Source: an uncultured Oscillospiraceae bacterium (lineage in GTDB: Bacteria > Bacillota > Clostridia > Oscillospirales > CAG-382). From it: a DNA stretch of 36,031 bases. How positions within the stretch are numbered: position 1 is the stretch's first letter; each line of letters begins with the position of its first letter. Below the pieces are notes generated by a model, which was not told the DNA's origin, searched no databases, and saw nothing but the letters and a program-made list of their open reading frames with translations. Shown piece after piece: positions 6,356 through 30,939 of the stretch. The translations under genes and the position numbers were made by a program. Location: contig CAZJCI010000001.1 of assembly GCA_964544455.1 (NCBI GenBank), positions 1-36,031 on the forward strand, given 5' to 3'.

Positions 6356-6382
6356 TTATACCGCAACCGCCTTAAAAAATAA

Positions 6383-6433
6383 AATATAACTCCGCATTTT
6401 GGCATATTATTGCCCAAAATGCGGAGTTATATT
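6383..6433 (-). terminator. very stable hairpin with a U-tract (intrinsic-terminator-like), 27 nt upstream of the tepA start codon
   Basis: Arms 6383-6402 and 6414-6433 are perfect 20-nt reverse complements (AATATAACTCCGCATTTTGG / CCAAAATGCGGAGTTATATT) with an 11-nt loop. On the minus strand the hairpin is followed by TTATTTTTTAAGG. On the plus strand it is followed by CAATTTTTAT. Confidence 0.6.
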
Positions 6434-6855
6434 CAATTTTTATCATTTTACCGCATCGTCGCACAAAACAGCTTTTGCATAATAATTCGCCGTACAAAAA
6501 ACGTGCTTTACTATATAATAATATACTTATATATCCGCATACTTACACACATGGCAGTATGCATAAATACAGCACAGCATAACACAGCCCGCAAATTTGC
6601 AAGAAAATTCTTTTTGCGCATATTATACCGTTCTTATAAACTCGAAAATATTCCGTCAGCCAACAGCCTAACCGCAAACGGCCGAATTCGCTTTGACGCG
6701 CCGCAAACTGTTTTTGAACCGTATTTTTGCAACTGTTTTAATTTTGAATATCCGCACTCAAGCACGCCGACAAACTTCAACCGTTGTGTTTAAAAATTTA
6801 CCGCCGAAAAATTCCGTTTCGCCAAACAGTTTTCACAAAATTTTCGGTTATCGAG

Positions 6856-6884
6856 TTGCAAAACGCAAAATACTGTGCTATAAT
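6856..6884 (+). promoter_or_regulatory. sigma-A type promoter for the giant ORF and mreB
   Basis: TTGCAA (6856-6861), a 17-nt spacer, then TGcTATAAT (-10 at 6879-6884). This is about 50 nt upstream of the ATG at 6934, which has AAAGGAA 7 nt upstream. Confidence 0.6.
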
Positions 6885-6933
6885 ATTGTCCGATATAATT
6901 TTTTATATATAATATAACCGAAAGGAACTGAAT

Positions 6934-9900
6934 ATGGACTGTAATGTCGCTTCCGAAAACGAATTTTCAATATCGGCGGAAATGCCTCAAACATATACGG
7001 CAACGCATTTTTTCTGCGGTATTCCGTTAATAAAATCCGTAATGCTGACGTCTGAAAAAACAATTTGCAATATTAACGGAAATTTATCCGTAAATATAAC
7101 CGCAAAATGCGAAAACTCGGATATCCTTAATTTCGCTTTTAATCTCGCCGATTTTCGCGCTTGCGATTATACGTGCGTCGGAGCAACCGCAATAAAGTTG
7201 AATCTCGAAAAATTTAAAATTGTTCCCAACGCCGATTTTATCAATTCGCTTGAAAACAACGCATACGCAAAAATTTTCATAACCGTTTGCATAGGCAAAA
7301 CGCACGCGGCAAAATCCGCAGATATAAAAATTTCTCCGTTCGGGCATATTTGCCCCGAAATGCCCCCGGAACTCGTTTGTTCATACGTTCTTCCGGATTG
7401 CGAATTTGCCGCAACCGCCGAACTCGAACTTCCGTCATATGCCGAAAAAGCGGAAAAAAAGCATTCTCAAAAACCGCCCAAGCAAATTCTTCACGCGGAA
7501 GCGTTGGCGGATTTTATGCTTTCCGCAAAGCTTACATATTCTTCGGTTCACAATGAATTGCCCGACGGCGAATGTATCATTCGCGATACGGACAGCCTTA
7601 TGGCTTCAAACAAAAAAAGCGTCAGTCAAACGGAAGCCGCGCTGATTTATTGCTCGCTTGCGGAACGTTGCGGTCTTCGTCCGGGAATAGTTTTTCTCCG
7701 CCGAGGAGCGGGAGCGATAAAAGTTCTCATAAAAATCGGTCTCGGCAATTACTACGCCGGAAACGCGGTCGGCGAAAGCGTTTCGCAATTACGAAAAAAA
7801 ATTCTGAATAAAGAAATATTTGTTTTTGATATTTTGGAACTTCTCGGTACGGAAGAAAGCGATTTTCAAAAAAACGTAACCGAAACCACCGCTCTTGTTT
7901 TTAAAGTCAGTTCGGCAGTCGCATATTCCGTAAACGTATATACCGCAAGACTTTGCGGCGTAAGGTCGTTGCGCCCGTTCGACGGTTGCGGCGCAAAAGA
8001 TATATACGGCGGATACGAAAGCGTTTCCGACGTTGTAAAAAAAATAGATAAAAACGCCGACTTGGTTTCGGTTTACAATTTTTCTCCGTATAAAACGCCG
8101 TCCTTGGGGCTTTGCGCCGCTTCAACTCTTGAATACGGAAAAGAATATACCGTTTCCGCTTTGGACGACGAATTCATATGCTCGTCGCCGGACGCATTTT
8201 CGGAAATATGCGAAATTCAACCGCAAAGAATATACGATATTCACCGAAACATAACCGAAAAAACACTCTATGATGCAAAAGCAGAAAAGCTGAAAAACAA
8301 AATTTCCGAAAGCGTAAAAAAAGGGACGGTTTACGCATACCCGTCAAAATATATGCTCTGTGCCGAAAAGCTTTTCCCCGAAAAAATTCGCGACGAACTT
8401 AATTCCGACGCAACCCTGCTTTGCCAAACGGCAAAAATAGCTTCTCTTAATTGCGAAAATACTTCCGTCTATGCAATTTGCGGAACAGTTAAGCTGACCG
8501 AAAACGGAAGCGAATGTTTTGTTCCGTGCGCATATATTCCTTGTAAAATTTCGGTGGAAACCGGCGCAATAAAAATCACATACGGAGTCGGGGGTGCAAT
8601 GCCGAACCCAAGTTTAATCAAACGTATTGCCCAACACACCGAATTCGGTTTAAATATCGGCGCAAATTCCGAACTTTGCCAAAATGAACTGAAAGATTAC
8701 ATATCAAAAATAAAAAAAATTTCACAAGAAAGCAACGGCAAATTTGTTTTTTATTCCGATACGTTTTTGGCGGCGTTCGATATTTCCTATGCGCTTATGA
8801 GAAACTGCCTTGAACGCACGGAAGGAAAAAAATTCGAAAGCTGTCTTGAAAACGGAAAATATACGCTTTCTCCACACGAAAACGCAAAAAACGAAAATTT
8901 CGATTCAACCTTGCCTTTCGAATGTTCTTCAACCGTGCGAGAAGCGGTAAAACAAGCCGAAACCGATAGCGTTGTTATTTCCGGCGCTCACGGAACCGGC
9001 AAAAAAAAGGCGGTCGCCAACATAATATCTCGCGCCGCTCTTGCGGGAAACGGCGTTCTTGTTTGTTCAAAATACCCCGAATCCCTAAAATCTCTCCGCA
9101 ATACCTTGTGCACAAAAGGTCTCGACGAATTGTGCCTCTATATATCGGAAGAAGCCGAAACCAAAAACAGAATTTTAAATGATATTCGAACCCTTACTTC
9201 AAAAGCGCAAAATCCGCCCAAAATCGCAAATAACGGTTTTTCCGCAACCGAATCCGCTCTTAATTTCCGCACAAATCAAGTTTATTCCGAATGCGGATTC
9301 GGATTGTCCCTATACGATTGCATTGAAGAATATTGCAAATACGACGTCGTATGCGAAGTTCCCCCAATAAACATCGAAACGGAAATTTGCAACCTTTCGG
9401 AAGAAAGCGTCAAAAATATTATTGATATTTCCGAAAATCTTGCCGCCAAAGCGGCGGAAATTTCCGAAATGTGCGAAAAAAGCCGAACCGATATATTTCA
9501 ATATCTGAAATATATAAAAAGCGTAAAAGAAATACCCAAATCATCGTTTTCCCTTTTTCAAGAAACAGCCGAACAAATCAGAATTTTTTCCGAAAAGTCC
9601 GCTTTCACCAAAAATTGCCTGGAACTCTCCGATAAAGATATGCCCTCCGTGCGTTCTCTGCTTGCTTTGGGCGAATTTTCGGAACTTATCGTAAAATCCG
9701 GAATAGATTTTCTTCCGAATCAAATTTTTGCCGAAAGCGTATACAGATGCGCAAAAAACGTCCATAGCGCGTGCGACTTAATCGACGAACTTCACGAAAT
9801 TAACTGCCGCCTCAGTTTTATAAGCAACAGAATAGCGTCCGTATCATGCACGGAACTTTACATAAAATGGAAAGATTCCGAAAACAATCTTTTTGTCCGA

Positions 9901-11931
9901 AACAGCATTATCCACGAAATAACAAAATATTTGCCCGCCGATAAAAAAATATCTTCAAAAGAAACAGGCGAAATTTTGGAAAATCTGTCTCGCCGAGAAC
10001 AGCTTGAAAAAGAGCTTTCTTCGGCGTCGTCGGAATTGAACTCTGTCCTCGGCGAACTTTGGAACGGAAAAAATACCGATACCGAAAAAGCAAGACGCAT
10101 AGCCTCATTTGCCGTTTCGGCAGACGCTTGCATAAAAAAGCTTTTCCCGACTCAAACCGCAATTTCCGAAAATACAATAAACGGAATAAAAAAATTGATA
10201 AGCGAACTTTCCAAAAATAACTCGCAAAAAACGGATTTTGTGTTGGCGGTTTCGGCTTTCAAAAAGCTTGCGGACCCCGGCAACGGGCTTTTTTCCCAAC
10301 TCCAGGAATGTTTGTGTGCCGATTTGTACGAACTCAAATTTCCCAACGGAATTATGAGTAAAAACGGAATGTGCACAATGTTGCACACATTTTGCGAAAA
10401 CATTCAAACGCTCTCAAAAATTCACGAACTTAACATTCTGAAAAAAGACGCCCAAGCCGTAGGACTTTCAAATTTTGTCCGTTATATCGAAACCCGAAAA
10501 ACTACCGGCAACGAATCGGCTCTTTTCAAAAAAAGTATCTACTGTGCGTTTGCAAATTATATCATTTCCTCAAAACAACTCACCGGTGAAGAAGATATTA
10601 CCCAACAATACAAAAAATACCGAGATGCCTATATCAACCAAAAAAACATTACGGCATACAATTTGATTGTTGCTCACCGAAAAAAATTCAAAGAATACGT
10701 TGCAACCGAAAACGGAAAAAAAGAGCTTTTCGAATTGCAAAAAAACCTTAACAACAGCGCACTGTCCTGCTGTGAAATCATAAATAACAGTTATAAAATT
10801 CTTCAAGTAATCTATTGTGCGGTATTGGTTCCTCTGACAATCGCATACGGTTTGCGTACATACCCCGAAATACTTGTGCTTACCGATTGCGAAAAAACCG
10901 ACGCTTCCGAGGGAATCCCGCTGTGCGCAAGCTTCGATAAATGCGTGTTTATAACTTCGCCGTTCGAAAAAATAGGAAGCATAATATCGTCTCTCCCTTT
11001 GGATATACCCATATTCGAACTTAATAGCGTTGCGGAAGAAAAAAACGGAAACATCTCGGCTTTTACCAACAGCCTTTTCGGAAACTCAATCGCAACGCTG
11101 TGCCGTGAAAGCGGCGAGGATACGGTGAAATTTATAAAATGCGACGGCGGCGTTTACGATAAAAACAACGGCACAAACAAAATTGAAGCGGTCAAAGCTT
11201 GTGAAACAGCCCTTTCCGTCGCTCAAACCGAAGGTTTTCAAAACGTGGGAATAATGGCGTTTACCGCCGCTCAAGCTTTCGAAATAACCTCCGCTTTGCA
11301 AATTCTTTCCAAAAAACACCGTAACCAAACCATTGCCGAAATTCCTGTTCGTTATATCGGCAATATGGGCGACTTTTCAAAAGAGGTCATTGTTTTATCG
11401 GTAACATTCGGTAAAAATATATTCTCTTTTCCCAAAAGTTTCGGTTGCGCCGACAATATAAGTATGATTCGTCACGGTCATCCGGTTGTTTTGGCGGAAT
11501 TGTTGTGCTGTTGCGGAAAATTATATGTAGTTTCCTCGTGCGAACCGGAAGAAATTTCCACCGACGGGTTGTGCCTTGGCGCAAGCGCAATACGAAGCGT
11601 TTTGGAACTTGCAAAATACGGTTGCTTGCCCATATACCTTTCAAACGAATCGCACAGCCGCACGCTTGGCGGAATCGAGAATAAAATTTGCCGAAATGCC
11701 TGCATTTCTCATAATGCGCAAAATGTAATCATAAGTAACGGAACAGCCGTATACGGCAATACCGCAATAGTTTATGATAACGGATATATCCGAGATGCCT
11801 ACGAAAGAATAATACTTCCTCTCACGGAATTCGAAGCGAAAGGCTATAACGTAAAATTTCAAAATATATGCGATTTGCTAAAAAATACAAAACCGACGGA
11901 ACCCTCGTTTCCGTCCGAGAAAAGAGAGTGA
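6934..11931 (+). CDS. 1665-aa DUF4011 / SF1 (Upf1-DNA2-like, AAA_11+AAA_12) helicase-related protein with a DUF559-like C-terminus; catalytic motifs degenerate
   Basis: An uninterrupted 4998-nt ORF with a good RBS. Landmarks read by eye:
- DUF4011-like core, aa 511-575 (VYAICGTVKL...FVPCAYIPCKIS...NPSLIKRIAQ).
- P-loop-like GAHGTGKKK, aa 684-692 (nt 8983-9009).
- Long helical insert, aa 740-1290.
- Motif II position reads LVLTDCEKT, aa 1314-1322 (nt 10873-10899).
- C-terminal block IVYDNGYIRDAYERIILPLTEFEAKGYNV resembles the ExDG...DxxR...GW core of DUF559/Vsr-like nucleases. Confidence 0.8.
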   Translation: MDCNVASENEFSISAEMPQTYTATHFFCGIPLIKSVMLTSEKTICNINGNLSVNITAKCENSDILNFAFNLADFRACDYTCVGATAIKLNLEKFKIVPNADFINSLENNAYAKIFITVCIGKTHAAKSADIKISPFGHICPEMPPELVCSYVLPDCEFAATAELELPSYAEKAEKKHSQKPPKQILHAEALADFMLSAKLTYSSVHNELPDGECIIRDTDSLMASNKKSVSQTEAALIYCSLAERCGLRPGIVFLRRGAGAIKVLIKIGLGNYYAGNAVGESVSQLRKKILNKEIFVFDILELLGTEESDFQKNVTETTALVFKVSSAVAYSVNVYTARLCGVRSLRPFDGCGAKDIYGGYESVSDVVKKIDKNADLVSVYNFSPYKTPSLGLCAASTLEYGKEYTVSALDDEFICSSPDAFSEICEIQPQRIYDIHRNITEKTLYDAKAEKLKNKISESVKKGTVYAYPSKYMLCAEKLFPEKIRDELNSDATLLCQTAKIASLNCENTSVYAICGTVKLTENGSECFVPCAYIPCKISVETGAIKITYGVGGAMPNPSLIKRIAQHTEFGLNIGANSELCQNELKDYISKIKKISQESNGKFVFYSDTFLAAFDISYALMRNCLERTEGKKFESCLENGKYTLSPHENAKNENFDSTLPFECSSTVREAVKQAETDSVVISGAHGTGKKKAVANIISRAALAGNGVLVCSKYPESLKSLRNTLCTKGLDELCLYISEEAETKNRILNDIRTLTSKAQNPPKIANNGFSATESALNFRTNQVYSECGFGLSLYDCIEEYCKYDVVCEVPPINIETEICNLSEESVKNIIDISENLAAKAAEISEMCEKSRTDIFQYLKYIKSVKEIPKSSFSLFQETAEQIRIFSEKSAFTKNCLELSDKDMPSVRSLLALGEFSELIVKSGIDFLPNQIFAESVYRCAKNVHSACDLIDELHEINCRLSFISNRIASVSCTELYIKWKDSENNLFVRNSIIHEITKYLPADKKISSKETGEILENLSRREQLEKELSSASSELNSVLGELWNGKNTDTEKARRIASFAVSADACIKKLFPTQTAISENTINGIKKLISELSKNNSQKTDFVLAVSAFKKLADPGNGLFSQLQECLCADLYELKFPNGIMSKNGMCTMLHTFCENIQTLSKIHELNILKKDAQAVGLSNFVRYIETRKTTGNESALFKKSIYCAFANYIISSKQLTGEEDITQQYKKYRDAYINQKNITAYNLIVAHRKKFKEYVATENGKKELFELQKNLNNSALSCCEIINNSYKILQVIYCAVLVPLTIAYGLRTYPEILVLTDCEKTDASEGIPLCASFDKCVFITSPFEKIGSIISSLPLDIPIFELNSVAEEKNGNISAFTNSLFGNSIATLCRESGEDTVKFIKCDGGVYDKNNGTNKIEAVKACETALSVAQTEGFQNVGIMAFTAAQAFEITSALQILSKKHRNQTIAEIPVRYIGNMGDFSKEVIVLSVTFGKNIFSFPKSFGCADNISMIRHGHPVVLAELLCCCGKLYVVSSCEPEEISTDGLCLGASAIRSVLELAKYGCLPIYLSNESHSRTLGGIENKICRNACISHNAQNVIISNGTAVYGNTAIVYDNGYIRDAYERIILPLTEFEAKGYNVKFQNICDLLKNTKPTEPSFPSEKRE

Positions 11932-11935
11932 CTAA

Positions 11936-12958
11936 TTGAACAGTTCAAGATATGTCGGAATAGATTTGGGCACAGCCAATACACTTGTCTATACAAAAGA
12001 AAAGGGAATAAGCGTAAGAGAACCGTCTATGGTTGCGTATGAACGGTCAACGTCAAAAGTAATAGCCGTCGGAAGCGAAGCGAAAAAAATGCTCGGCAAA
12101 ACGCCGGACTCCATAAAAACTCTCAGTCCCGTAAAAGACGGAGTAATTGCTGATTTTGAATTTTGCGCCGATATGCTTTGCGAATTTATAAAAAAGGGAT
12201 TCGGTCCGATTTTGGGCTTTCGTCCCAAAGTAATGGTTTGCATTCCTTTCGGCATAACGGAGGTTGAAAAACGGGCGGTGCTGGATTCCATACTCGAAGC
12301 GGGCGCAAGCAGCGTCGAAATTTTCGAAGAACCTCTTTGCGCGGCTCTGGGCGCAGGACTTCCCGTAATGTCGGAAAAAGGCAGTATGATTGTGGATATA
12401 GGAGCGGGAACCGCCGAAATAGCAATTCTTTCGCACGGAGGAATAGTAACTTCCACGTCCGTAAAAATTGCGGGTAACGCATTTGATAAATCCATAATTT
12501 CATATATAAAACAGGAATTTAACGTCCTGATAGGTCAGGTAACCGCCGAAGAAATAAAAACCAAAATCGGTTCCGCACACCCAAGTTCGGACATCGGCGC
12601 AATCGAAGTAAAAGGCAGAAATATGCGCAACGGAAAAGCCGCCGAATTCATATTATATTCCGCCGAAGTACGAGAAGCAATTCAAGAACCGCTTGCCGCG
12701 CTTTTCGAAGCAATACGCTCCGTGCTGGATTCCGCGCCGCCGGAAATTTGCGCCGATATTTACGACAACGGCATAACGCTCAGCGGCGGCGGCGCACTGT
12801 TAAAAGGACTTAACTTTTATTTCCACGATATTTCAAAATTAAACGTAAGAGTTGCCGAAAATCCGCTTGACTGCGTAATTTGCGGCATACGCAAGCTTAT
12901 TCAAGAACCGGCGTTGCGCAATAAAATCGAAAGTATAGCTCTTCATTCCGCAACATAA
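11936..12958 (+). CDS. mreB: rod-shape-determining actin homologue MreB/Mbl
   Basis: A TTG start 4 nt after the giant ORF's TGA, with AAGAGAG 7 nt upstream. Canonical MreB blocks are present: GIDLGTANTLVY, REPSMVA, KDGVIADFE, EEPLCAALGAGLPV, GSMIVDIGAGTAEIA, GRNMRNG, LSGGGALLKGL, VAENPLDCV. There is no mreC or mreD downstream. Confidence 0.9.
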   Translation: MNSSRYVGIDLGTANTLVYTKEKGISVREPSMVAYERSTSKVIAVGSEAKKMLGKTPDSIKTLSPVKDGVIADFEFCADMLCEFIKKGFGPILGFRPKVMVCIPFGITEVEKRAVLDSILEAGASSVEIFEEPLCAALGAGLPVMSEKGSMIVDIGAGTAEIAILSHGGIVTSTSVKIAGNAFDKSIISYIKQEFNVLIGQVTAEEIKTKIGSAHPSSDIGAIEVKGRNMRNGKAAEFILYSAEVREAIQEPLAALFEAIRSVLDSAPPEICADIYDNGITLSGGGALLKGLNFYFHDISKLNVRVAENPLDCVICGIRKLIQEPALRNKIESIALHSAT

Positions 12959-12970: not shown

Positions 12971-13010
12971 TTTAAAAAATGTCTTGATATTTTAAAAAAA
13001 TGTCTTGACT
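12971..13010 (+). repeat. tandem 20-bp direct repeat TTTAAAAAA(A)TGTCTTGA(TAT/CT)
   Basis: Copy 1 is 12971-12990 and copy 2 is 12991-13010. They are near-identical apart from one extra A. Copy 2 supplies the -35 of the tsaB promoter. Confidence 0.5.
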
Positions 13011-13034
13011 TTTCAAACCGCAAAACTGTATAAT
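13005..13034 (+). promoter_or_regulatory. sigma-A type promoter for tsaB-hpt
   Basis: TTGACT (13005-13010), an 18-nt spacer ending in TG, then TATAAT (13029-13034). Confidence 0.6.
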
Positions 13035-13064
13035 ATATCTAACATAACAAAGATTGGTGATAAA

Positions 13065-13829
13065 ATGTATATACTTGCCATTGATACAACAGCAAAAACG
13101 GCGTCCGTATGCGTTGCAAAAGTTTGCGAAGAAGAAATAACCCCCTGTTCTTTGTGGACAGTAAATTGCGGATTCACTCACAGCGAAACGCTCTTGCCGA
13201 TGATCGACGCTTGCCTTGGCGCAACGGGAATTTCAACCGATAATTTGGAAATTATCGCCGTAAGTGCCGGTCCCGGTTCTTTCACCGGAGTAAGAATAGG
13301 CGTTGCCGCCGCAAAGGGAATTTCTTTCGGACTCGCCGCAAAGGGAATAACTCATAAATGCGTCGAAGTTTCTTCAATCGAAGCTTTGGCGGAAAACGTA
13401 AAAAATTATTCCGAATATGTCATATGCCCCGTAATGGACGCAAGACGTTCTCAGTTTTACAACGGACTTTTCAGCGCAAAAAGCGGAAAAATACAAAGAC
13501 TGTGCAACGACAGACTTTCCACCGCCGCCGAACTTTATAACGATATAAACGAAAAATTCGTCAACAAAAAAATTCTTCTTGTGGGCGACGGTGCGGTTTT
13601 GTGCAAAAAACTTTTCGATAAAATCGCCGTCGAATCGCAAAATAACCCAAACTTTGAATATACCGTTTGCGACAGTTCGGATATGTACCAAAACGCATAT
13701 TCGGTTGCCAAAACCGCAATTTTTTCGCCAAACGCCAAAAACACGGACGGCGCACGGCTTTCGCCGATATACCTAAGAGCTTCGCAAGCCGAAAGAGAAC
13801 GCTTGGCTCGCCAAAAAGAAAAAGAATAA
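13065..13829 (+). CDS. tsaB: tRNA t6A37 threonylcarbamoyl-adenosine biosynthesis protein TsaB (YeaZ)
   Basis: Track ORF 13005..13829. The upstream part overlaps the promoter, so I prefer the ATG at 13065 (MYILAIDTT). TsaB-typical segments are ILAIDTT, HSETLLPMID and AVSAGPGSFTGVRIGV. Confidence 0.85.
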   Translation: MYILAIDTTAKTASVCVAKVCEEEITPCSLWTVNCGFTHSETLLPMIDACLGATGISTDNLEIIAVSAGPGSFTGVRIGVAAAKGISFGLAAKGITHKCVEVSSIEALAENVKNYSEYVICPVMDARRSQFYNGLFSAKSGKIQRLCNDRLSTAAELYNDINEKFVNKKILLVGDGAVLCKKLFDKIAVESQNNPNFEYTVCDSSDMYQNAYSVAKTAIFSPNAKNTDGARLSPIYLRASQAERERLARQKEKE

Positions 13830-13853
13830 AAATCTTGAAAGGATTGTCATTTT

Positions 13854-14423
13854 ATGCTCAAAACTTCAATCGAAAACGACATCGAACAAGTACTGCTGTC
13901 TGAAGAACAAATCCAAAACGCCGTAAAAAAAATTGCCGCTGAAATAACGGCGGATCACCAAAATTCCGAAAAAAACCTTCTGCTTGTCTGTATACTTAAA
14001 GGCTCTCTGCCTTTCACTGCGGATTTGCTTAAGGAAATAAAAATCCCCTGCACATTGGATTTTATGAAAGTTTCTTCCTACGGTTCCGGAACCGTTTCCA
14101 CAGGACAGGTAAAAATCAAATACGACCTTGCCGAAGAAACGCTTGAAGACTACGACGTTGTGGTAATCGAAGATATAATAGATACCGGTCATACTCTTTC
14201 CAATCTTCTTGTCCATCTTAAAAACAGACACGCTCACAGCGTAAAACTTTGCGCGCTTGTCAATAAACCCGATCGAAGAATCGTAAACGTAAACGTGGAT
14301 TACTGCGGCTATACCATACCGGATAAGTTCGTTGTCGGCTACGGTTTGGATTACGACGAAAAATACAGAAATCTTCCCTACATAGGAATACTTAAAGAAG
14401 AAGTATACAAAGGCAAACTTTAA
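13854..14423 (+). CDS. hpt: hypoxanthine phosphoribosyltransferase
   Basis: 189 aa. It has the PRPP-binding motif VVVIEDIIDTGHTL, plus LKGSLPF, FMKVSSYG, KFVVGYGLDY and YRNLPYIG. AAAGGA RBS. Confidence 0.92.
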   Translation: MLKTSIENDIEQVLLSEEQIQNAVKKIAAEITADHQNSEKNLLLVCILKGSLPFTADLLKEIKIPCTLDFMKVSSYGSGTVSTGQVKIKYDLAEETLEDYDVVVIEDIIDTGHTLSNLLVHLKNRHAHSVKLCALVNKPDRRIVNVNVDYCGYTIPDKFVVGYGLDYDEKYRNLPYIGILKEEVYKGKL

Positions 14424-14502
14424 TATTTTTAAAAATATATAATAAAAACAGCCGTTGCCCGCTTCAAATTTGCGCCAAAGCAACGGCAAGAAGGAGAATT
14501 AT

Positions 14503-15495
14503 ATGAGTATACAGGAAAACATCAAACGCTTTCAAAGCAAAAAATGGGGTGTGTTTTACCACTTTTTGGGCGGACACGACGGCAAAGCGTGGAGCGAAAG
14601 AGTAGATAAAGTCAACGTTGAACTTTGGGCAAAACAGCTCTGCGAGTTGGGGTGCGGATTTATGGGCATAACCATGATGCAGGTAACGCAGTGTATGCTT
14701 GCTCCAAACGAAGCATACAACAGAATAACGGGCTACGCTCCCGGCGAAGCATGCGCAAAGCGAGATTTAGTACTCGAACTTTCCGACGCGCTTGCAAAAT
14801 ACGATATAGACCTAATGCTGTACTATACCGGCGACGGTCCGTGTCGAGACAGAAGCCATAAAGCCAGCAACGCTTTCGGCTTTACCACCAATCAACCCGT
14901 TTGCGTCAACGGAAAATGGACGCCGCTTGTAAAGGAACCGGAATATATCCCTCAAAGTTTTGTGGATAAATGGTGCGAAGTCCTCCAAGAATATGCCCAA
15001 AGATACGGCAACAGGGTTTTCGCTTGGTGGATTGACGGTTGCTCCAAAACGCTTTACGAAGATTCCACAAGACTTCAATATCTTGAAAAGTTCAAAAACG
15101 CCGCAAGAAGCGGAAATCCCGATGTTCTTATGACATTCAACGCAGGTTTTTGCAACACCGGTCACCGCCCGCCCTGCCGCCTCGATGATTTCACCAGCGG
15201 AGAAACAAGCGAATTTTTACCCATTCCGCAAAGTCCCTACGTCGAAAACGCCCTGTGGTTCGAATTTTTGTGCAACGGATTTTGGTGGAAAAACGGCGAC
15301 AGAAGCACCGGAATTTGGGTTGGAAACAAAGAAGAACAAAATCAAATAAGATATACCCCCGAAGAACTGCGAGACCACGTAAAAGCCGTAAACGAAGCCG
15401 GCGGCGTGGTAATGTTCGATACGCAATTCGTAAACGACGGAAAAATCAACGAATTGCAATTCGAATGTATGTCAAAACTTTGCGAACTGAAATGA
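14503..15495 (+). CDS. GH29-like (alpha-L-fucosidase-like) TIM-barrel hydrolase, catalytic domain only, cytoplasmic
   Basis: The ATG at 14503 is preceded by AAGGAGA. WGVFYHF, KRDLVLELSDALAKYDIDLMLYY and the AWWIDG block resemble the GH29 core, including the Asp nucleophile position. No signal peptide. Assigned by eye only. Confidence 0.55.
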   Translation: MSIQENIKRFQSKKWGVFYHFLGGHDGKAWSERVDKVNVELWAKQLCELGCGFMGITMMQVTQCMLAPNEAYNRITGYAPGEACAKRDLVLELSDALAKYDIDLMLYYTGDGPCRDRSHKASNAFGFTTNQPVCVNGKWTPLVKEPEYIPQSFVDKWCEVLQEYAQRYGNRVFAWWIDGCSKTLYEDSTRLQYLEKFKNAARSGNPDVLMTFNAGFCNTGHRPPCRLDDFTSGETSEFLPIPQSPYVENALWFEFLCNGFWWKNGDRSTGIWVGNKEEQNQIRYTPEELRDHVKAVNEAGGVVMFDTQFVNDGKINELQFECMSKLCELK

Positions 15496-15545
15496 GATGA
15501 AAATATATTTTGAAAAATACGAATAAATATAAGGAGAACAAAATA

Positions 15546-16001
15546 ATGGGATTTTTGGCGGATTTTAAAAAATTTATTAATCGAGGAAACGTAATAGATA
15601 TGGCGGTCGGCGTCGTTGTCGGCGGCGCGTTCAGCAAAATCGTGTCTTCTCTTGTTTCCGATATAATAACTCCGTGTATCTCCGCAATCACGGGCGGCGG
15701 AAAAGTAACCGGAGAATTTGTTTTGCGAAAAGCGGTTATCGGCAACGGAACGGCGGAAGTGCCGGAAATACCGTCGGTGGTTCTAAACTACGGTAATTTT
15801 ATTCAAACAATAATCGACTTTCTGCTTATAGCGTTTTGCATCTTTGTCGTAATAAAAATCATTTCGTCAATGCGAGAAAAAGCCGAAAAACTCACCAAAA
15901 AAGAAAAACCCGAAGAAACTCCGGTAGCTCCTCCGCCGCCAAGCAAAGAAGAAATTCTGCTCGGCGAAATAAGAGATTTGCTCAAAGAAAAAAACAAATA
16001 A
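15546..16001 (+). CDS. mscL: large-conductance mechanosensitive channel MscL
   Basis: The ATG at 15546 is preceded by AAGGAGA; the track's 15510 start is a TTG inside the spacer. The MscL signature FKKFINRGNVIDMAVGVVVGGAF is present, with a second TM segment and a charged C-terminal tail. Confidence 0.9.
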   Translation: MGFLADFKKFINRGNVIDMAVGVVVGGAFSKIVSSLVSDIITPCISAITGGGKVTGEFVLRKAVIGNGTAEVPEIPSVVLNYGNFIQTIIDFLLIAFCIFVVIKIISSMREKAEKLTKKEKPEETPVAPPPPSKEEILLGEIRDLLKEKNK

Positions 16002-16008
16002 AATATCA

Positions 16009-16043
16009 AAAAACGGTACGGCTCCCATAACCGTACCGTTTTT
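16009..16043. terminator. bidirectional intrinsic terminator between mscL and the glycyl radical enzyme gene
   Basis: AAAAACGGTACGG, a 9-nt loop, then CCGTACCGTTTTT. The stem is 13 bp and is flanked by an A-run and a T-run, so it gives a U-tract on both strands. It sits between convergent stop codons at 16001 and 16051. Confidence 0.75.
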
Positions 16044-16050
16044 CGATTCT

Positions 16051-18105
16051 TCAAATTTCTTCATACTCAAGCCGTTCAATAAACTCTTTTTTTGTTTTTT
16101 GGGGCAATTTCTTAAAATAGTCGCTGTATCCGCCGATTCTTACAATCAAGTTTGGGTAACTTTCCGGGTTTTCCGTTGCACTTTTCAAAAGTTTGGAAGA
16201 AAGCGAATTAACTTGGAATTGCAATCCTCCTCGTTCCAAATAAATGTTTATAAGCGTTTTAATTTCGGCTTTGTGATTGCGAACGGCGTCAATACCGAAA
16301 TTAACGTCTATCGGTTGTCCCCCGAAAAATTTGTGTTGCGGCAACTTAGAAGCCGATAATATCATCGAAGTCGGATTCGATTTTCTCGCTTCGTTGGAAG
16401 CCCCCGCATTCTTTGCAAAAGGTTTTCCCGCATATCGTCCGTCATAGCCCGCCCCATGCGCCGCACCGTATGCAACGTTGGCGTCGATTGTGTGCAGCGA
16501 CGGACAATAATATATATTCCCATGGCTGAATTTTCTTATTAATTTCGAAAGAATTTCGGCTACCCTAACGGCATAAACGTCAGCTGCGGAATTTTCCCCG
16601 AACTTCGAACACTTCATAATGTCGTTTCGAATATTTTCGAAATTCACAAAATTATTTTTCACAGCTTCGTTAATTTCGCTAATAGAATAAAGCTTCTTCT
16701 TAAACACAAGCTCGTCAACGGCGCAAATTCCGTCGGAAGCGTTTATCATTCCCATACATTCAAACGTCACATTGTGATATTTTGCCCCCGATATTCTGTC
16801 GCAACGCTTTTCAATGCATCCCGGAGTCAGCAACGAAACAAACGGGTTGGGTTGCGTCCTTTTGCTGAGTTCGGCTCGTTCTTCATACGATTTCACACAT
16901 ATCTCAAGCATATATTCTGCGCATTTTTCAAAATTTTCAAACAATCCCTCAATGCTTCGCGGCTCGTCAATGCTTGGCACAATTATGTTATCCGATTTTA
17001 AAATTTTACCGCAATTCACAGCGGCTTCAAGAATGTTCGAAACCGAAAGCACACATCCCCACATACTGTTAAATTCGTTTCCTGGGATTCCAATACCCAT
17101 ACACGAATTGTTTGAGAATTTTTCAATGTCGCCTTGCGGTACGCCTTTTTCCATCAAAGCGTTAATACAGGATTTTTCTCCGTAAAAAGTCGGCTGTCCC
17201 GAAGAAAATAATTTTTCGTCAATAAGTAAATCCCATATTTTTCCCGACGTGTTTTCGTCAACCCTCGCACCCAAAATAGGCGCAGGCATTTCAAATTCCT
17301 TTTGACATTCAATAATCAGCTCGGATAATTCGTTATATTTCGGTCCAACGTTCAAAAGACAAGCACCGTCGCAATAACTGTTCAATAGTTTATAAAAGTT
17401 GCGCAAAATGCTTTTGGCTTTATCCTCGGTCATTCCGTTTAAAACCGACGCCTTATAATAAGGATACATATATTCGTCAAATTTTCCCAAAGAAATACTG
17501 TACCACGCATTTTCCGATAAAGGAATCAAAAAATGCAATATCCAAACCGCTTGAACAGCTTCGCAAAAGCTTTCGGCCGGATAATACGGAACTTTGTCAA
17601 TCATTTGTTTCAACGAAATAAGTTGCGATTTTTGCGATTCGTCGCAACTGAAAAGCCGCTTTTCCGTTATAACCGAAATTCGTTTCATCAAGTTCAAAAC
17701 CGAATCAACGGAACGCTTCATTGCCGCAAGATATTCGTCTTGCGGATATTTTTTTAATTCCCCGTCAATTTGCTTTTCATAAAAAACAAGTCCGTTTTTC
17801 AATACGCTTTCATAGTCAATCACAATGTGCGCTCTGTCAACGTTCGTTCGACAGCCAAACAAATCCGGAGCGTCCGTAATTCTTTTCGAACTCTCGCTTT
17901 GCATTTCGTCCGCAAACAAAGCGTTTTCACTGTTGTTGTCAAAATATAACCACCCGATAATTTCATCGTCTTTTTCAATTTTAAGCTTTAAAGCTTCGGT
18001 TTCAAGCCTGAATTTTTCGGCAGACCTGATAATCGGCGAAAGGCTTTTCAAATCGTCATAAAAATTTTTTCTGATATATCTTTCAATAGCGTAATCACAA
18101 AGCAT
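16051..18105 (-). CDS. compact PFL-like glycyl radical enzyme (684 aa from ATG 18105; 703 aa if the TTG at 18162 is used)
   Basis: The C-terminus PESYPNLIVRIGGYSDYF (RIGGYSDYF at nt 16114-16140) corresponds to the RVxGYSA-F glycine-radical motif. The Cys-loop candidate is FSNNSCMGIGIPGNE (Cys codon at 17103-17101). Other PFL2-family-like segments are FxEAVQAVW and YPYY. The ATG at 18105 has AAGGA 11 nt upstream and overlaps the iclR stop by 11 nt. Confidence 0.8.
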   Translation of the reverse strand: MLCDYAIERYIRKNFYDDLKSLSPIIRSAEKFRLETEALKLKIEKDDEIIGWLYFDNNSENALFADEMQSESSKRITDAPDLFGCRTNVDRAHIVIDYESVLKNGLVFYEKQIDGELKKYPQDEYLAAMKRSVDSVLNLMKRISVITEKRLFSCDESQKSQLISLKQMIDKVPYYPAESFCEAVQAVWILHFLIPLSENAWYSISLGKFDEYMYPYYKASVLNGMTEDKAKSILRNFYKLLNSYCDGACLLNVGPKYNELSELIIECQKEFEMPAPILGARVDENTSGKIWDLLIDEKLFSSGQPTFYGEKSCINALMEKGVPQGDIEKFSNNSCMGIGIPGNEFNSMWGCVLSVSNILEAAVNCGKILKSDNIIVPSIDEPRSIEGLFENFEKCAEYMLEICVKSYEERAELSKRTQPNPFVSLLTPGCIEKRCDRISGAKYHNVTFECMGMINASDGICAVDELVFKKKLYSISEINEAVKNNFVNFENIRNDIMKCSKFGENSAADVYAVRVAEILSKLIRKFSHGNIYYCPSLHTIDANVAYGAAHGAGYDGRYAGKPFAKNAGASNEARKSNPTSMILSASKLPQHKFFGGQPIDVNFGIDAVRNHKAEIKTLINIYLERGGLQFQVNSLSSKLLKSATENPESYPNLIVRIGGYSDYFKKLPQKTKKEFIERLEYEEI

Positions 18106-18811
18106 AACCCAAACCGTCCTTATATCCCAAATTTTTCGAAATTTTTTTTGCCGCTCTTTCAAGTAACGGCAACTTATCCGTTATCAGCGAATCAATGTCG
18201 TCGTAAATGGTAAGCGATGAAATTCCAACGGAAGCAATAACCGCCCCATCGGAATCATAAACGGGAACGGCAATGCATATAATCCCCTTTGCAAATTCTT
18301 CGTTGTCAATCGCATATCCCGCTTCTTTGATTTTTTCCGCTTCGCCGGAAAAATCGTCCGGATAATCTCCGTAAGAAAGCAAAACTTTGCCGGGTGCGGA
18401 AGAACAAAGCGGATATTCGCCTCCGATTTTGCCGTTAATGCGCACTTCTTTCAGGGAATCAAAATGAAGCAAATAAAGCGCGTTGCCGTTGTTTCGCACA
18501 CCAAGATATACCGAGTCGCCCAAAAGCCGATTTAAATTACGCAATTCGTTTTTCGCAATTTCGGCAAGATAATATTCCGGCGTGCATTTCGAAACAATCG
18601 AAAACGGTTTCATTGTAAATCTGTATTTTTTTTGAATATCGTCGCTTAAATAAATCCAATTATATTCAAGCAAAGCTTCAAGAACTCTCGAAGCGGCGTT
18701 TTTGTTAATTTCAAGCGAATTGCATATATCGGCAAGACCAATATCTTTGCGGTTCTCCGAAAAAAACTCAATAATTCTCAAAGCATAGTCAACCGCAGGA
18801 GCTTTCGACAT
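18095..18811 (-). CDS. IclR family transcriptional regulator
   Basis: 238 aa. The N-terminal winged HTH (VDYALRIIEFFSEN...IGLADICNSLEINKNAASRVLEALLE) and C-terminal effector domain layout are typical of IclR. GAGG RBS. Confidence 0.85.
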   Translation of the reverse strand: MSKAPAVDYALRIIEFFSENRKDIGLADICNSLEINKNAASRVLEALLEYNWIYLSDDIQKKYRFTMKPFSIVSKCTPEYYLAEIAKNELRNLNRLLGDSVYLGVRNNGNALYLLHFDSLKEVRINGKIGGEYPLCSSAPGKVLLSYGDYPDDFSGEAEKIKEAGYAIDNEEFAKGIICIAVPVYDSDGAVIASVGISSLTIYDDIDSLITDKLPLLERAAKKISKNLGYKDGLGYAL

Positions 18812-21791: not shown

Positions 21792-24700
21792 ATGGCAACA
21801 AATTCAAATAAAACAATTAAAATCAGTCAGCTTGCAAAGGATTTTAAGCTGAAAAACAAAGAACTTTTGGAAATCATCGAAGAAAACGGAATTTCCGGCA
21901 AAACCTCAAGTATGGGACTCGACGAAACCGAGTTCAGCGTTGTGTTCAACGCAATTTCCAAAAAGAGCGTAGCAACGGAAGCGGAGTTCTTTTCATACGA
22001 CGTAGAAGCTGCGGCAAAAGCGGCAGCTCAAAAAGCCGCCGAGGAAAAAGCCGAAAAAGCGGCAAAAAAAGCCGAAAAGGCGGAATCCAAAACCGAATCC
22101 AAACCCGAAGCAAAAGCCGCACCCAAGACGGATGCAAAGTCCGAACCCAAAACAGAGCATAATGAAACCGAATTTTCGCAAAACAAGGTTTCTCAACCCG
22201 AAATTTCAAAAACCGAAGCATCACAAAACGAAAACGTTTCAAAAGCCGATGTCGCAACTCAAAAATCAACCGTCGAGCCCAAAAACGAACCCAAGGAAGA
22301 ACTTTCGGCAAAACCCGAAACCGTAACCGAACCAAAAACCGAAAGCAAATCCGAGCCCAAGCCCGAATTTAAAGCCGACTCCAAAACCGCCCAAAAATTC
22401 GAAAAAGAACCCTCAAAAAATGCTCAAGTCGGAGATAAAAAAACTTTCGAAAGAAAACCAAATACTGCCGAAAAGAATTTTCACAAAGAGGCCGCGCCAC
22501 CCGAACGTCGTCCCTACGGCGAAAAGAAGCCAAACGGAGAACGAACGCTGTCGGAACGCACTCCTTTCGGCGAAAGGAAGCCCTACGGCGACCGAAAACC
22601 CTACGGTGAGAGAACACAAAACGACCGTCCGTCCTATGGCGACCGAAAGCCCTACGGCGAAAAGAATCAAAACGGCGGTTTCGGAAACGGCGAAGTTTTT
22701 GGCGGCGGATTCAAAAAGCAACAAAACAAAGGCGAAAAAAGAGGTTTCGGCACAGGCGTTTCAAAGGAAGACGAAGACGGAAATCAGTCTGTTCGTCAGC
22801 CCAGCATAAAACCTGTGTTCGATAAAGACGGACGCGCGCAAAGCCGCTATAAAAGCGAAAACGTGGAAAAGAAATCGTTCGATGCCGAAGCCAAGGACGG
22901 AAACGTAAGACTTGTGGACCTCCGAGCCGGAGAAGTCGATCTTTCCAAATATGATGAAAAGTTCGAAAATCTTGCCGGAAGCTATGGCGATGACGATAAT
23001 GCCCCCAAGAAAAAAGCAACTACTTCTTCAACTTCAAAAGGCTCGCCGAAAAACGGCGGTAAAAACGGTAAAAACGAATACGTTAAAAACGAACTTCCCA
23101 ATTACGGCAGAGGGAAAAAGGATAAAAATGCCAAAAAGGGAAGAGGAATCGCTCAGTCGGAGCCGGTTAAAAAGTTCACCGGACCGGTAACCATTCCTGA
23201 TGAAATTATGATTTCGGACCTTGCCGCAACTTTAAAAATCACAACCGGCGAAGTAATTAAAAAGTTGCTTATGATGGGGCTTGATATGGCAAGCGTAGGC
23301 GCAAATAAGGTTATTGATTTCGATACGGCATATCTTGTTGCGGACGAAATGGGAATTACTGCGGAGCGAGAAGTGGTGGTAACTCTTGAAGAAAAGCTTT
23401 TTGCGGACGAAGAAGATAAAGCCGAACAATTGGTTCAAAGAAGTCCCGTGGTTTGCGTAATGGGGCATGTTGACCACGGAAAAACATCGTTGCTTGACGC
23501 TATTCGAAACACAAACGTTACAGTAGGCGAAGCCGGCGGTATTACCCAGCATATCGGCGCATACAGAGTAAAAATAAACGATAGGGAAATCACATTCTTG
23601 GATACTCCCGGTCACGAGGCTTTTACCGCAATGAGAGCTCGCGGCGCACAGGCAACTGATATTGCCATTCTTGTTGTTGCCGCCGATGACGGTATTATGC
23701 CGCAAACGGTTGAAGCCATTAACCATGCAAAAGCCGCCGGCATACAAGTTATTGTTGCAATTAACAAAATGGATAAACTTGGCGCAAATCCCGACAGAGT
23801 GAAGCAGGAACTTGTTAATTACGATCTTCTTCCCGAAGATTGGGGCGGAGATACAATATGCGTTCCCGTGTCTGCGCTTAAACACGAGGGAATCGAAGAA
23901 CTTCTCGAAATGGTTCTGCTTGTTGCCGATATGAAAGATTTAAAGGCAAATCCCAACAGAGCCGCAAAAGGTATTGTCATAGAAGCAAAGTTGGATAAGG
24001 GAAGAGGCTCCGTTGCAACGGTTCTTGTGCAAAACGGTACCTTAAAAACCGGCGATATTGTAATTGCCGGAACGGCAACCGGGCGTGTAAGAGCTATGAC
24101 GAATGACAGAGGAGAAAATGTAAAAACCGCAGGGCCGTCAGTTCCGGTGGAAATTATCGGTCTTTCGGAAGTCCCGGATGCCGGCGACGAATTCAGAGCC
24201 GTTGCGGATGAAAAAATGGCAAGAGAACTTGTTGCCAAAAGGAAAAACGAAGCCAAGGAAGCGGAATTCAAAGCAAATTCCAAGGTATCTTTGGAAGATC
24301 TTTTCAGTCAGATTAACGAAGGTGCCAAGGAACTTACCATTATTGTTAAAGCGGATGTTCAAGGTTCGGCGGAAGCGGTTAAATCCAGCCTTGAAAAGCT
24401 TTCAAACGAAGAAGTTAAGGTACGTGTAATTCATTCTGCGGTGGGCGGAATCAACGAAAGCGACGTTATGCTTGCGGACGCCTCAAACGCAATTATTGTC
24501 GGTTTTAACGTTCGTCCCGACAAAGGCGCAACCGAACATGCCGAAAGAAGCGGTGTTGATATAAGAACCTACCGAGTTATTTACGATATTATCGAAGAAG
24601 TTAAAGCCGCGCTTTGCGGTATGCTTGCTCCGGAATTTAAAGAATCCGTGCTTGGTCACGCCGAAGTCCGTCAAACAATTCATGTGCCCGGCGTTGGAAC

Positions 24701-25396: not shown

Positions 25397-26806
25397 ATGA
25401 AAAAAGAAAAGCTGTTCGCTTTATTGGAAAATTGCATTATGGTATTGCTTTTTGCGGCAATGCTGTTTCAATGTGCCGTTTATGTCGGTTTTGTGCAAGG
25501 CGATAATGCGGGACTTTCGGAATTTCCCGAAAGCGAAAAGAAAAAAATTGCAAATATCCGTATTTCAACGTCCGAAACAGCAAAGTCTTTCATAATCCCC
25601 TATTTTGTCGGCACTATAACCGAAAACGGAAATTTTGCCGGCGCATATAACGAAAATTCGGCATATGAGATATTCGGATATTTTTTAAATGTTCTTGAAA
25701 ATGCTGTTGGCGGTACTTGTAAAAAGGTTGCTTATTCCGATTTCGAAAAAAAATACGAATATCTTGACAACCTTTATGTCAACACAAAAAACTGTTATTA
25801 TGTCTGCTTTGAAAACGGGATTGAATTTTCGGTGTTGTGCGGACTTATAACGGATACATACGCCGATATTCCCGAAAATCCGGATTTTATTGTGAAAGAT
25901 ATGTTTCTTTTGTGCGGTTCTTTGGGCGAAACTAGCATTACTGCGGTCGATCCTGACGGCAACGTATTAAAAATTTTTCCGTCAAAGAACATTTCGTTCA
26001 ATAATGAATACCTTGAAACATATAATGGAACCGATAAAGACGAATTTGAATTTGTAAAAGTAGACGGAAATAAAAAAGCCGGAAAAAACTGCTATTTCCC
26101 GTCATACAAATATTCGATAGGCTATGAAACCGTAAATAAAAAGAGTTTTAACGATAAATTTTCCGTAAGCGCGGACAGCGACGATATTAAAGAATTGGTA
26201 AGAATTTTCGGAATGAACAATGATAATACGCATTTTTATAAAAAAAGCGACAGTTCGATTGTATGTGTTGAAGCAAATGACAGCTTTGAAATTTCGATTG
26301 ACGGAAATTTTGCGTTTGTTTCGGAAAACGGAAAAAATTTGTCCGAGTTTGCCGGAAGCGGTATTAATTCGGAGTACGGTTTTTCCGATTATGCAAGTGT
26401 GACAAAGAATATTGTTAAATCTATAAACGAAAAGCTTGTGGGTTGCCGTGCAAAACTTACGTTAAACGATATTATATACAGCAACGGCGAATGTTTGTTC
26501 AGATGTAATTATACAATTGACGGTATACCCATCGAAAATTCGGAAATATACGGTCTTGAATTGAAATTCAGCGGCGAAAAGCTTATATCCGCTTTCGGAA
26601 AAATCGAAGTAATCGAATATTCAAACGAAGCGATAACCGATATGCCGCAACGAACATCATATGTATTGTTGCCCGATTCGGAGAATTTTTATATTGTTTA
26701 TTTCGGAGCGGAATATTGTTTCGATTCAAATGCGGAAAACTCGGATATTGCCGTATTGCGCTGGACAGCAAAAACCGAAAGCGTTGAAAAGGAGGCAAAT
26801 TCATGA
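25397..26806 (+). CDS. membrane-anchored protein of unknown function (tentatively YycH-like)
   Basis: 469 aa. TAGGGGA RBS. One N-terminal TM segment (CIMVLLFAAMLFQCAVYV), then a large, probably extracytoplasmic, beta-rich region. The YycH-like call rests only on size, topology and pairing with the next gene. Confidence 0.65.
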   Translation: MKKEKLFALLENCIMVLLFAAMLFQCAVYVGFVQGDNAGLSEFPESEKKKIANIRISTSETAKSFIIPYFVGTITENGNFAGAYNENSAYEIFGYFLNVLENAVGGTCKKVAYSDFEKKYEYLDNLYVNTKNCYYVCFENGIEFSVLCGLITDTYADIPENPDFIVKDMFLLCGSLGETSITAVDPDGNVLKIFPSKNISFNNEYLETYNGTDKDEFEFVKVDGNKKAGKNCYFPSYKYSIGYETVNKKSFNDKFSVSADSDDIKELVRIFGMNNDNTHFYKKSDSSIVCVEANDSFEISIDGNFAFVSENGKNLSEFAGSGINSEYGFSDYASVTKNIVKSINEKLVGCRAKLTLNDIIYSNGECLFRCNYTIDGIPIENSEIYGLELKFSGEKLISAFGKIEVIEYSNEAITDMPQRTSYVLLPDSENFYIVYFGAEYCFDSNAENSDIAVLRWTAKTESVEKEANS

Positions 26807-30301: not shown

Positions 30302-30939
30302 TGCTGATAACAAAAATTTTTTCGTCGGAAACCGGTAACGAATATACGATTTATGATGAAACTTGCGCAAAGTATATTATTTCCGCGGCTGATTTTAAGC
30401 GGCTTAAAATATCATATTTCGGAGACGAGCCAGAGTTCCCCAAAGAACTTTCGGACGATATCAGAAACGCGCTTTCCGAATATGCCGAAAAATTACGGTG
30501 CGTAAAATATTTGCAATGGTATATTCAAAATTATGGTGAAAAGAGCGTTAAAAGGCTTCTTGAAAAATGCACGGAAAACGGGTATAGCGATGAAATTTCG
30601 GAAGCCGCAACGGCATTGTTGATTAAGTTTAATATAATAGATGAAATTGCCGCTTGCAAAAGGCGTATTACGGTTTATGCCGAAGATAAGCTGTTCGGAA
30701 AGTACAGAATAAAGCAAGAATTATTTGCAAAAGGATACAATAAAAAAAGTATCGAAGCCGCTTTCGAAGATTGTGAAACCGATTTTTATGAAAATGCGGC
30801 TGCAATGTATGCAAAATTGACCAAAAACGGCGTTCCGAAAGATTTTTACGAAAAGAAAAAATTGTGCGATAAAATGGTTCGCTACGGTTATTCTTATGAT
30901 GAAATAAAATTCGCTTCATCCGTTGAATATGAACAATAA
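30301..30939 (+). CDS. recX: RecA regulator RecX
   Basis: TAATG overlap with recA. 212 aa, with a helical-repeat pattern such as RIKQELFAKGYNKKSIEAAF and KMVRYGYSYDEI. The position after recA fits. Confidence 0.8.
   Translation: MLITKIFSSETGNEYTIYDETCAKYIISAADFKRLKISYFGDEPEFPKELSDDIRNALSEYAEKLRCVKYLQWYIQNYGEKSVKRLLEKCTENGYSDEISEAATALLIKFNIIDEIAACKRRITVYAEDKLFGKYRIKQELFAKGYNKKSIEAAFEDCETDFYENAAAMYAKLTKNGVPKDFYEKKKLCDKMVRYGYSYDEIKFASSVEYEQ

Follow-up and report, generated by a model that had tools for sequence, protein, structure and literature searches.

The stretch of DNA analysed here, 36,031 nucleotides (nt) from an uncultured Oscillospiraceae bacterium and referred to below as the window, carries on its plus strand a large gene and, as the next gene on the same strand, the cell-shape gene mreB (Table 1). 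The first-pass annotation had described the large gene as an intact reading frame equipped with a promoter and a ribosome-binding site, and all of this was borne out. The open reading frame (ORF) is uninterrupted, with an ATG start and a TGA stop, and the putative promoter, identified by its consensus match, agrees with the consensus at 10 of 12 positions and includes the TG of an extended -10 element. The product is a soluble protein of about 190 kDa: a hydropathy analysis found no transmembrane-like segment in it, and the idea of a membrane protein was rejected, the segment of highest hydropathy being the buried strand that precedes motif II. The identity of mreB is given by Pfam MreB_Mbl (E 1.9e-125), PRK13927 (421 bits, cut-off 293) and TIGR00904 (399 bits, cut-off 366). 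The 3' end of the large gene contains a purine-rich Shine-Dalgarno-like stretch, and no terminator-like site was found on the plus strand at its junction with mreB. The large gene would head an operon that includes mreB, with a spacing compatible with translational coupling.

Table 1. Features of the large gene and its surroundings, with positions in the window
Feature	Position	Strand	Remarks
Sigma-70-type promoter-like site	6856..6884	+	TTGCAA, 17-nt spacer, TATAAT; TG ahead of -10
Ribosome-binding site AAAGGAA	6921..6927	+	6 nt before the ATG; read from the sequence
Large gene	6934..11931	+	intact 1665-amino-acid (aa) ORF; homologue, predicted to be catalytically dead, of ProA/DUF4011-type superfamily 1B (SF1B) helicase-nucleases
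N-terminal beta-sandwich	6961..7338	+	about aa 10-135; AlphaFold model, Foldseek Ig-like sandwiches
Relic transglutaminase-like alpha/beta domain	7351..7968	+	about aa 140-345; putative fold assignment
DUF4011-equivalent region	8083..8553	+	about aa 384-540; conserved YAxxG...APCxxxPC core; hhalign and alignment, boundaries approximate
Relic P-loop GAHGTGKKK	8983..9009	+	aa 684-692; Lys in place of the Mg-binding Ser/Thr
All-helical insertion of about 525 aa in RecA-like domain 1	9241..10818	+	about aa 770-1295; secondary structure of the model
Relic motif II PEILVLTDCEKT	10864..10899	+	aa 1311-1322; D-C-E-K-T replaces DEASQ, D1318 invariant
Site of the deletion of about 20 residues removing motif III (GDPKQLPP)	10948..10971	+	common to all mreB-linked relatives
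RecA-like domain 2	11131..11568	+	about aa 1400-1545; structural N..EA and T..Q motifs kept
C-terminal remnant of an MTES_1575/DUF559-type nuclease	11719..11883	+	aa 1596-1650; colinear with ProA
mreB	11936..12958	+	340 aa, TTG start; 4 nt past the stop codon of the large gene
tsaB-like, hypoxanthine phosphoribosyltransferase-like (hpt), 346-aa fucosidase-like ORF, mscL	13005..16001	+	co-oriented
Strong hairpin after mscL	16005..16047	.	19 bp, then T-run; reported on the minus strand

Direct searches with the large protein were uninformative. No domain reached threshold in a Pfam scan, the sole match of which, CENP-H, was dismissed as chance; the gathering threshold of DUF4011 (PF13195) stands at 22.2 bits, and the protein gave no match to it. 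A sequence search of the PDB gave no meaningful match either. The best-scoring named family is NCBIfam "anti-phage protein ProA" (NF058533; E 1.4e-47, best stretch aa 487-1304), with 161.9 bits against an equivalog cut-off of 1500 bits, which the control proteins P0035 (2282 bits) and P0039 (2145 bits) pass. NCBIfam Hhe (NF042953) matches only about aa 677-760, with E 1.5e-6 and 25.9 bits and thus below its cut-off of 2000 bits, and the corresponding PADLOC models give E 3e-32 for PDC-S37 and E 6e-8 for Hhe. The helicase similarity that the first-pass annotation had read by eye is therefore significant, being seen in all of these matches as well as in an Upf1-like fold (see below), and ProA rather than Hhe can be added as the closest named family.

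Profile alignment extends this similarity to nearly the whole protein. An alignment of the 16 family members described below, compared by hhalign with the canonical DUF4011/AAA_11/AAA_12/MTES_1575 protein P0017, gave a probability of 98.9 % and E 1.5e-17 over 1393 aligned columns (query 73-1591 against 274-1825). ProA-type proteins consist of a beta-sandwich and a transglutaminase-like domain, DUF4011, an Upf1-like SF1B helicase with a large helical insertion, and an MTES_1575 nuclease. With this order the window protein is colinear over about 1400 columns, and the helical insertion is the part most similar to ProA. DUF4011 itself is matched weakly by Pfam in 3 of the 16 family members (best E 2.3e-4). 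The DUF4011/helicase/nuclease architecture proposed earlier thus stands in its order, but DUF3320 is absent rather than eroded and the nuclease end is weak. As aligned and modelled, the window protein retains a ProA-type fold with its domains in the matching order, and it clearly descends from the ProA lineage within the ProA/Hhe class of single-gene anti-phage proteins.

The motifs on which an SF1B motor depends have a different fate. With I GxxGxGK[ST], II DExx, III GDxxQLPP, IV YR, V QGxE and VI RRxNVAxTRA as the reference, the window protein reads GTGKKK, DCEK, a deletion, EKNG, GDFSKE and a motif VI without arginine. In the alignments GAHGTGKKK faces canonical GPPGTGKSQ (I), LVLTDCE-KT faces LVVFDEASQ (II), a gap of about 20 residues faces GDPKQMPP (III), EEKNGN faces YRSRHES (IV), GDFSKE faces QCDERD (V), and HGHPVVL-AELLCCCGK faces GGWRRLNVAISRARR (VI). 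What has gone is the Ser/Thr of motif I, the DE of II, all of III, the Arg of IV, the QGxE of V and both Arg of VI; still in place are the Gly and Lys residues that frame the P-loop (GxxGxGK) and the Asp of Walker B. In the close family of 16 orthologues, G684, G687, G689, K690, K691, D1318, G1479 and D1480 are invariant.

The register that the first-pass annotation had set by eye was reproduced both by hhalign and by MAFFT alignments with the bona fide ProA proteins P0035 and P0039, and the strings quoted there are found at the residues given: GAHGTGKKK at 684-692, PEILVLTDCEKT at 1311-1322, FITSPFEK at 1339-1346, GHPVVLAELLCCCGKLYVV at 1515-1533 and IVYDNGYIRDAYER from 1612. A misregistration was rejected, since the degenerate strings sit opposite canonical motifs I-VI, and no canonical helicase motifs were found elsewhere in the protein in the alignments to P0017 and the ProA proteins. 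The wording that every catalytic motif is eroded is slightly too strong in the light of the surviving GxxGxGK and Walker B Asp. A model of the C-terminal 1190 residues, of moderate quality (predicted local distance difference test (pLDDT) 67, predicted template modelling score (pTM) 0.37), shows two RecA-like domains in an Upf1-type fold and matches Setx, Upf1, Ighmbp2, Dna2 and Aquarius in Foldseek with probability 1.0.

Both flanking modules appear to have been affected in the same way. The AlphaFold model of the N-terminal 475 residues (pLDDT 85, pTM 0.71) shows a beta-sandwich and, after it, an alpha/beta domain. In their N-terminal part canonical ProA proteins have the pattern G[NT]C[LA]D...H...(E/D), and Pfam Transglut_core (clan of PF01841) weakly matches 5 of 6 ProA fragments (best E 0.0017). 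A transglutaminase would have Cys at the N-terminus of a helix and His and Asp on the next strands; in the window protein the helix starts at T233, which takes the Cys position (S-Q-T-E) and is followed by strands, and the alignments place a 5-residue insertion at the His position. Foldseek returned Ig-like sandwiches, factor XIII and protein 4.2 over about 140-150 aligned columns, a match to transglutaminases that may reflect the beta-sandwich only, and a PDB profile search with the N-terminal domain of ProA gave no matches. These observations point to a transglutaminase-like domain whose catalytic Cys and His would be gone, a module that the first-pass annotation had not included. At the other end, the last ~70 residues align weakly by hhalign with the MTES_1575 region of ProA (E 0.0035, probability 9 %, with a 12-residue deletion), Pfam finds no MTES_1575/DUF559 match in the window protein, and a distant relative lacking the motifs likewise (P0024) still matches MTES_1575 with E 2.4e-4; most of the nuclease core appears to be lost from the window protein. 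In the alignments the residues required for hydrolysing ATP and for coupling this to translocation on nucleic acid are missing, as are, apparently, those for transglutaminase/protease-type and nuclease catalysis, and we infer that the protein would have neither ATP-driven translocase nor nuclease function.

Loss of motifs on this scale could perceivably accompany the decay of a gene, and the orthologues speak against this. A search of 5.8 billion proteins recovered 16 full-length orthologues of 1650-1689 aa and 41-100 % identity, all from metagenome-assembled genomes (MAGs) or metagenomes; two records name the carrier as "Clostridia bacterium", and further carriers in a GTDB scan are Oscillospiraceae and Eubacteriales MAGs of animal-gut origin. 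All 16 carry the same altered motifs and none is frameshifted. Against the 90 %-identical orthologue, the ratio of non-synonymous to synonymous substitution rates (dN/dS) comes to 0.22 for the whole gene and lies within 0.14-0.33 for each of its regions, the minimum of 0.14 falling on the degenerate helicase core; mreB and tsaB, for comparison, give 0.13 and 0.14. Purifying selection and full-length conservation together imply that the large protein has a function. The earlier proposal of a pseudo-helicase selected for a non-enzymatic role is accordingly supported, and we regard the protein as very probably a selected pseudoenzyme derived from ProA.

The altered motifs extend well beyond the close family. 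An exhaustive search of 1.84 billion representative proteins with a trimmed 9-sequence profile gave 6472 hits in tiers, namely the window's own family above 900 bits, relatives of about 1600 aa at 100-260 bits, and canonical ProA of about 1950 aa. The intermediate relatives (P0024-P0034, P0052, P0055, P0119 and P0145) lack every motif, the P-loop mostly being gone entirely, and deeper members of the window's family (P0020, P0021 and P0022) have GKE, GKKA or GRN at the P-loop. Together these proteins form what we call the dead clade, in which identity to the window protein falls to 15-18 % in other sub-clades and P-loop-like sequence is best preserved in the window's own family. All dead-clade relatives aligned have in common the deletion of motif III and an insertion at the transglutaminase-like His position, and these shared indels argue that the clade arose once. 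Scans of Joint Genome Institute (JGI) metagenome contigs found no relatives of the window protein.

A second property of the clade is its abundance of cysteine. The window protein contains 4.1 % Cys, compared with 1.6 % for 13 neighbouring genes pooled and about 1 % for canonical ProA, and the clade as a whole is mostly enriched (2.4-3.3 %), P0052 (1.4 %) being an exception. Fourteen Cys do not vary within the close family; among them are the pairs C240/C246, C532/C537 and C1331/C1337 as well as C1403 and C1423. It is possible that C1331, C1337, C1403 and C1423, all invariant in the 16 close orthologues, form a candidate iron-sulphur or zinc site; P0022 differs in the C1331/C1337 stretch, and other sub-clades have no conserved Cys pair there.

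The strongest functional clue, and one that goes beyond the first-pass annotation, is the linkage to mreB. In all 14 distinct dead-clade genes examined (the window gene, P0002, P0003, P0004, P0011, P0016, P0018, the L006 gene, P0022, P0024, P0027, P0031, P0052 and P0055), mreB follows directly on the same strand, at a distance of -4 to +67 nt. The other neighbours vary by sub-clade, with fab genes, a penicillin-binding protein, a beta-galactosidase or rimP-nusA upstream and an aminotransferase, iPGM or tsaB downstream, so that the mreB junction is the only feature of the context retained across the whole dead clade. The tsaB/hpt/mscL-type neighbours found downstream in the window are conserved only among closer relatives; in the window they probably share the transcription unit of the large gene and mreB, and the hairpin beyond mscL may terminate this unit on the plus strand as well, given its near-palindromic stem.

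The surroundings of canonical ProA are of another kind. The one canonical ProA gene checked, P0035, does not adjoin mreB, and relatives of ProA turned up on 430 plasmid records, of which 203 are conjugative. The plasmid-borne ProA-type proteins are annotated as "DUF3320 domain-containing protein" (for example NZ_OY725931.1 14944-20802), and their hosts include Klebsiella, Ralstonia, Acinetobacter, Rhizobium and Bacteroides, in sharp contrast to the dead clade, which is strictly chromosomal. Neither the plasmid nor the phage collection yielded a close relative of the window protein, each giving one weak match of 27 %, and its gene stands among core genes, the wider window holding rimP-nusA-infB, recA, tsaB, hpt and an EPSP-synthase-family gene. 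PADLOC found no defence genes among the neighbouring genes. A mobile or defence-island gene was rejected on these grounds of core context, lack of PADLOC neighbours, fixed mreB synteny and lack of close plasmid or phage relatives.

How might such a protein work? We propose that it would work through binding, in stoichiometric amounts, and would be a scaffold or adaptor acting with MreB filaments; it would be a large cytoplasmic protein made together with MreB and probably also working with it. A nucleotide or phosphate may still occupy the relic P-loop and D1318 in the window's family, where it would be a structural or allosteric ligand. The linkage to mreB persists, however, in sister sub-clades that have no P-loop, and a function common to the clade would therefore need no nucleoside triphosphate. 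That the protein functions with MreB, as the order of the genes suggests, we consider plausible though just short of probable, whereas the combined statement, that an exapted pseudoenzyme acts through binding and probably together with MreB, is in our judgement somewhat on the probable side. The full scenario, in which a ProA-type protein was domesticated once in an ancestor of gut Clostridia, stripped of three activities and retained over a very long period as a 190-kDa, Cys-rich accessory factor of the actin-like MreB cytoskeleton, co-translated with MreB, can be put forward only tentatively.

Several points weigh against this interpretation. The invariance of K690 and D1318 in the close family leaves nucleotide binding or slow hydrolysis conceivable, the quality of the C-terminal model is only moderate, and the transglutaminase-like and nuclease assignments go back to sub-threshold matches. 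The link to MreB is one of gene order, in a single vertically evolving lineage of uncultured Clostridia. Moreover, literature searches on PDC-S37, ProA and DUF4011 did not find a mechanism for ProA itself, and neither a description of the dead clade nor any connection of ProA/DUF4011 with MreB was found in the papers searched.

Some of these points invite a different account, in which gene order is inherited history and the selected pseudoenzyme has a task unrelated to MreB, such as that of a scaffold or regulator that binds nucleic acids or proteins, its gene having stayed at the site where the ancestral ProA was inserted. Its carriers indeed all appear to be one lineage of gut Clostridia MAGs, the divergence of MreB tracks that of the large protein, as vertical co-inheritance predicts, and the protein sequence holds no actin-binding pointer. 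All other neighbours have been shuffled, yet the mreB junction has kept its narrow range in 14 of 14 loci down to 15-18 % identity, and in operon evolution such retention of a junction is typical of co-functioning genes, so that we judge this account to be unlikely, though worth keeping in mind. Still lower in our estimation, and rather improbable, is the possibility that the protein has remained immune, as a non-catalytic nucleotide-binding sensor or guard, perhaps one that monitors MreB, or as a decoy for phage anti-defence factors. This would suit its descent from a family named anti-phage by both NCBIfam and PADLOC and the invariance of GxxGxGK and the Walker B Asp in the close family, and some phages target or exploit MreB; it would not suit a gene fixed in a core operon in all 14 loci, as opposed to the patchy and mobile canonical ProA, nor a protein with no effector domain left and no defence genes nearby, nor the sister sub-clades that have the same mreB linkage and no P-loop.

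Retained enzymatic activity fares worse. A divergent ATPase or helicase could have moved its catalytic residues, with D1318-x-E1320 serving as Walker B and Lys691/692 coordinating Mg2+, and it is true that D1318 is invariant, that E1320 occurs in 14 of 16 family members and that K690, K691 and K692 are conserved. With motif III gone, no Arg left in motifs IV and VI nor any conserved Arg that would compensate, and the P-loop reading GKE, GKKA or GRN in the deeper members and missing from other sub-clades, such an activity is very improbable. As to a decaying pseudogene or an artefact of ORF calling, which the lack of any Pfam domain at threshold and the fact that all database copies are unnamed hypothetical proteins might suggest, this is refuted by the 5 kb free of stops, the at least 16 full-length orthologues without frameshifts, the low dN/dS in each region and the confident N-terminal model.

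Returning to the proposed pseudoenzyme acting with MreB, comparison with known systems helps to place it. Compared with ProA (PADLOC candidate PDC-S37), with which it shares the order of modules, the window protein is about 250 aa shorter at the C-terminus, lacks DUF3320 and the catalytic motifs of three modules and is far richer in Cys, and its gene belongs to a core chromosomal mreB operon, whereas relatives of ProA are frequent on plasmids. Hhe, a single-gene defence protein with a DUF4011 helicase-nuclease, has in common with it the DUF4011 plus Upf1-like helicase architecture and the similarity around the P-loop, but this match is far weaker than that to ProA, and active helicase or nuclease motifs are missing from the window protein. 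Upf1, Senataxin/Sen1, Ighmbp2, Dna2 and Aquarius share the predicted fold of the two RecA-like domains at only 10-16 % identity, the window protein lacking the catalytic motifs and having this helicase part embedded in a much larger bacterial architecture.

The nearest functional precedents may be RecC of RecBCD and AddB of AddAB, superfamily 1 helicase folds without motor motifs that are kept as binding or recognition scaffolds; RecC has lost all motor motifs and contains a dead nuclease-like domain, and AddB has kept only Walker A, which resembles the relic GxxGxGK seen here. The two are derived from superfamily 1A, however, are unrelated in sequence, act as partners of an active helicase in the processing of DNA ends and have no link to mreB; Foldseek returned AddAB at rank 2 with a low probability of 0.30. 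For the N-terminal part, erythrocyte protein 4.2 offers an analogy as a dead transglutaminase that serves as a membrane-cytoskeleton scaffold (Foldseek match 7tvz_E, probability 1.0), but it is eukaryotic, the match of about 150 columns may concern the beta-sandwich only, and the likeness is one of fold alone.

What is new here is the triple inactivation, a deep dead clade with shared indels and an invariant coupling to mreB. Few bacterial pseudoenzymes have been documented as descendants of defence proteins, and in this case three modules would be silenced with ~1650 residues held under purifying selection. The invariant and often overlapping junction with mreB provides a concrete and testable hypothesis for a new cytoskeleton-associated factor in a little-studied, uncultured branch of gut Clostridia, which, if true, would add a new class to the known partners of MreB and be a clear exaptation from immunity to housekeeping in bacteria. 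A motif-dead reference could also show which surfaces of ProA/Hhe-type proteins bind rather than catalyse. On the practical side, annotation pipelines leave these proteins unnamed, and defence-system finders could mislabel them through their weak similarity to ProA/PDC-S37/Hhe.

The region 5' of the large gene is less constant than its 3' junction. In the window it is a 578-bp non-coding stretch (6356-6933) without an Rfam match, the Rfam scan having found no RNA families in the whole window; in several orthologous loci (L001, L002 and L003) its place is taken by a conserved gene of 114 aa that runs on the opposite strand, and in the locus of the closest relative (L009) by a BlaI/Penicillinase_R-type repressor. 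Conservation of the upstream region thus fails even for orthologues that are 90 % identical. The slot between hpt and mscL is variable too: the 346-aa ORF of the window (14455-15495) has a weak alpha-L-fucosidase match (E 1.7e-6), L009 holds an unannotated 330-aa gene there, the loci of the 41-50 %-identity orthologues a GDPD-family gene and L010 a PIG-L gene. In one distant relative (L015), spoIIID (2129-2422) lies 3.6 kb upstream of the pair of dead helicase and mreB. In Bacillus subtilis spoIIID adjoins mbl, and the mreB linked to the dead helicase might be an mbl-type paralogue.

Elsewhere in the window, three plus-strand ORFs, at 25397-26806, 26803-27768 and 30301-30939 (469, 321 and 212 aa), have no Pfam match at E <= 1e-4; they sit between infB and the EPSP-synthase-family gene, and just past recA. 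On the minus strand, ORFs for a PFL-like glycyl-radical enzyme (16051-18162, 703 aa, TTG start) and an IclR-type regulator (18095-18811) share 68 nt, and the former is probably over-extended at its TTG start. The AT skew reaches 0.50 at 22001-23000, a strongly A-rich coding stretch in the N-terminal part of infB that is probably a low-complexity, Lys/Glu-rich linker.

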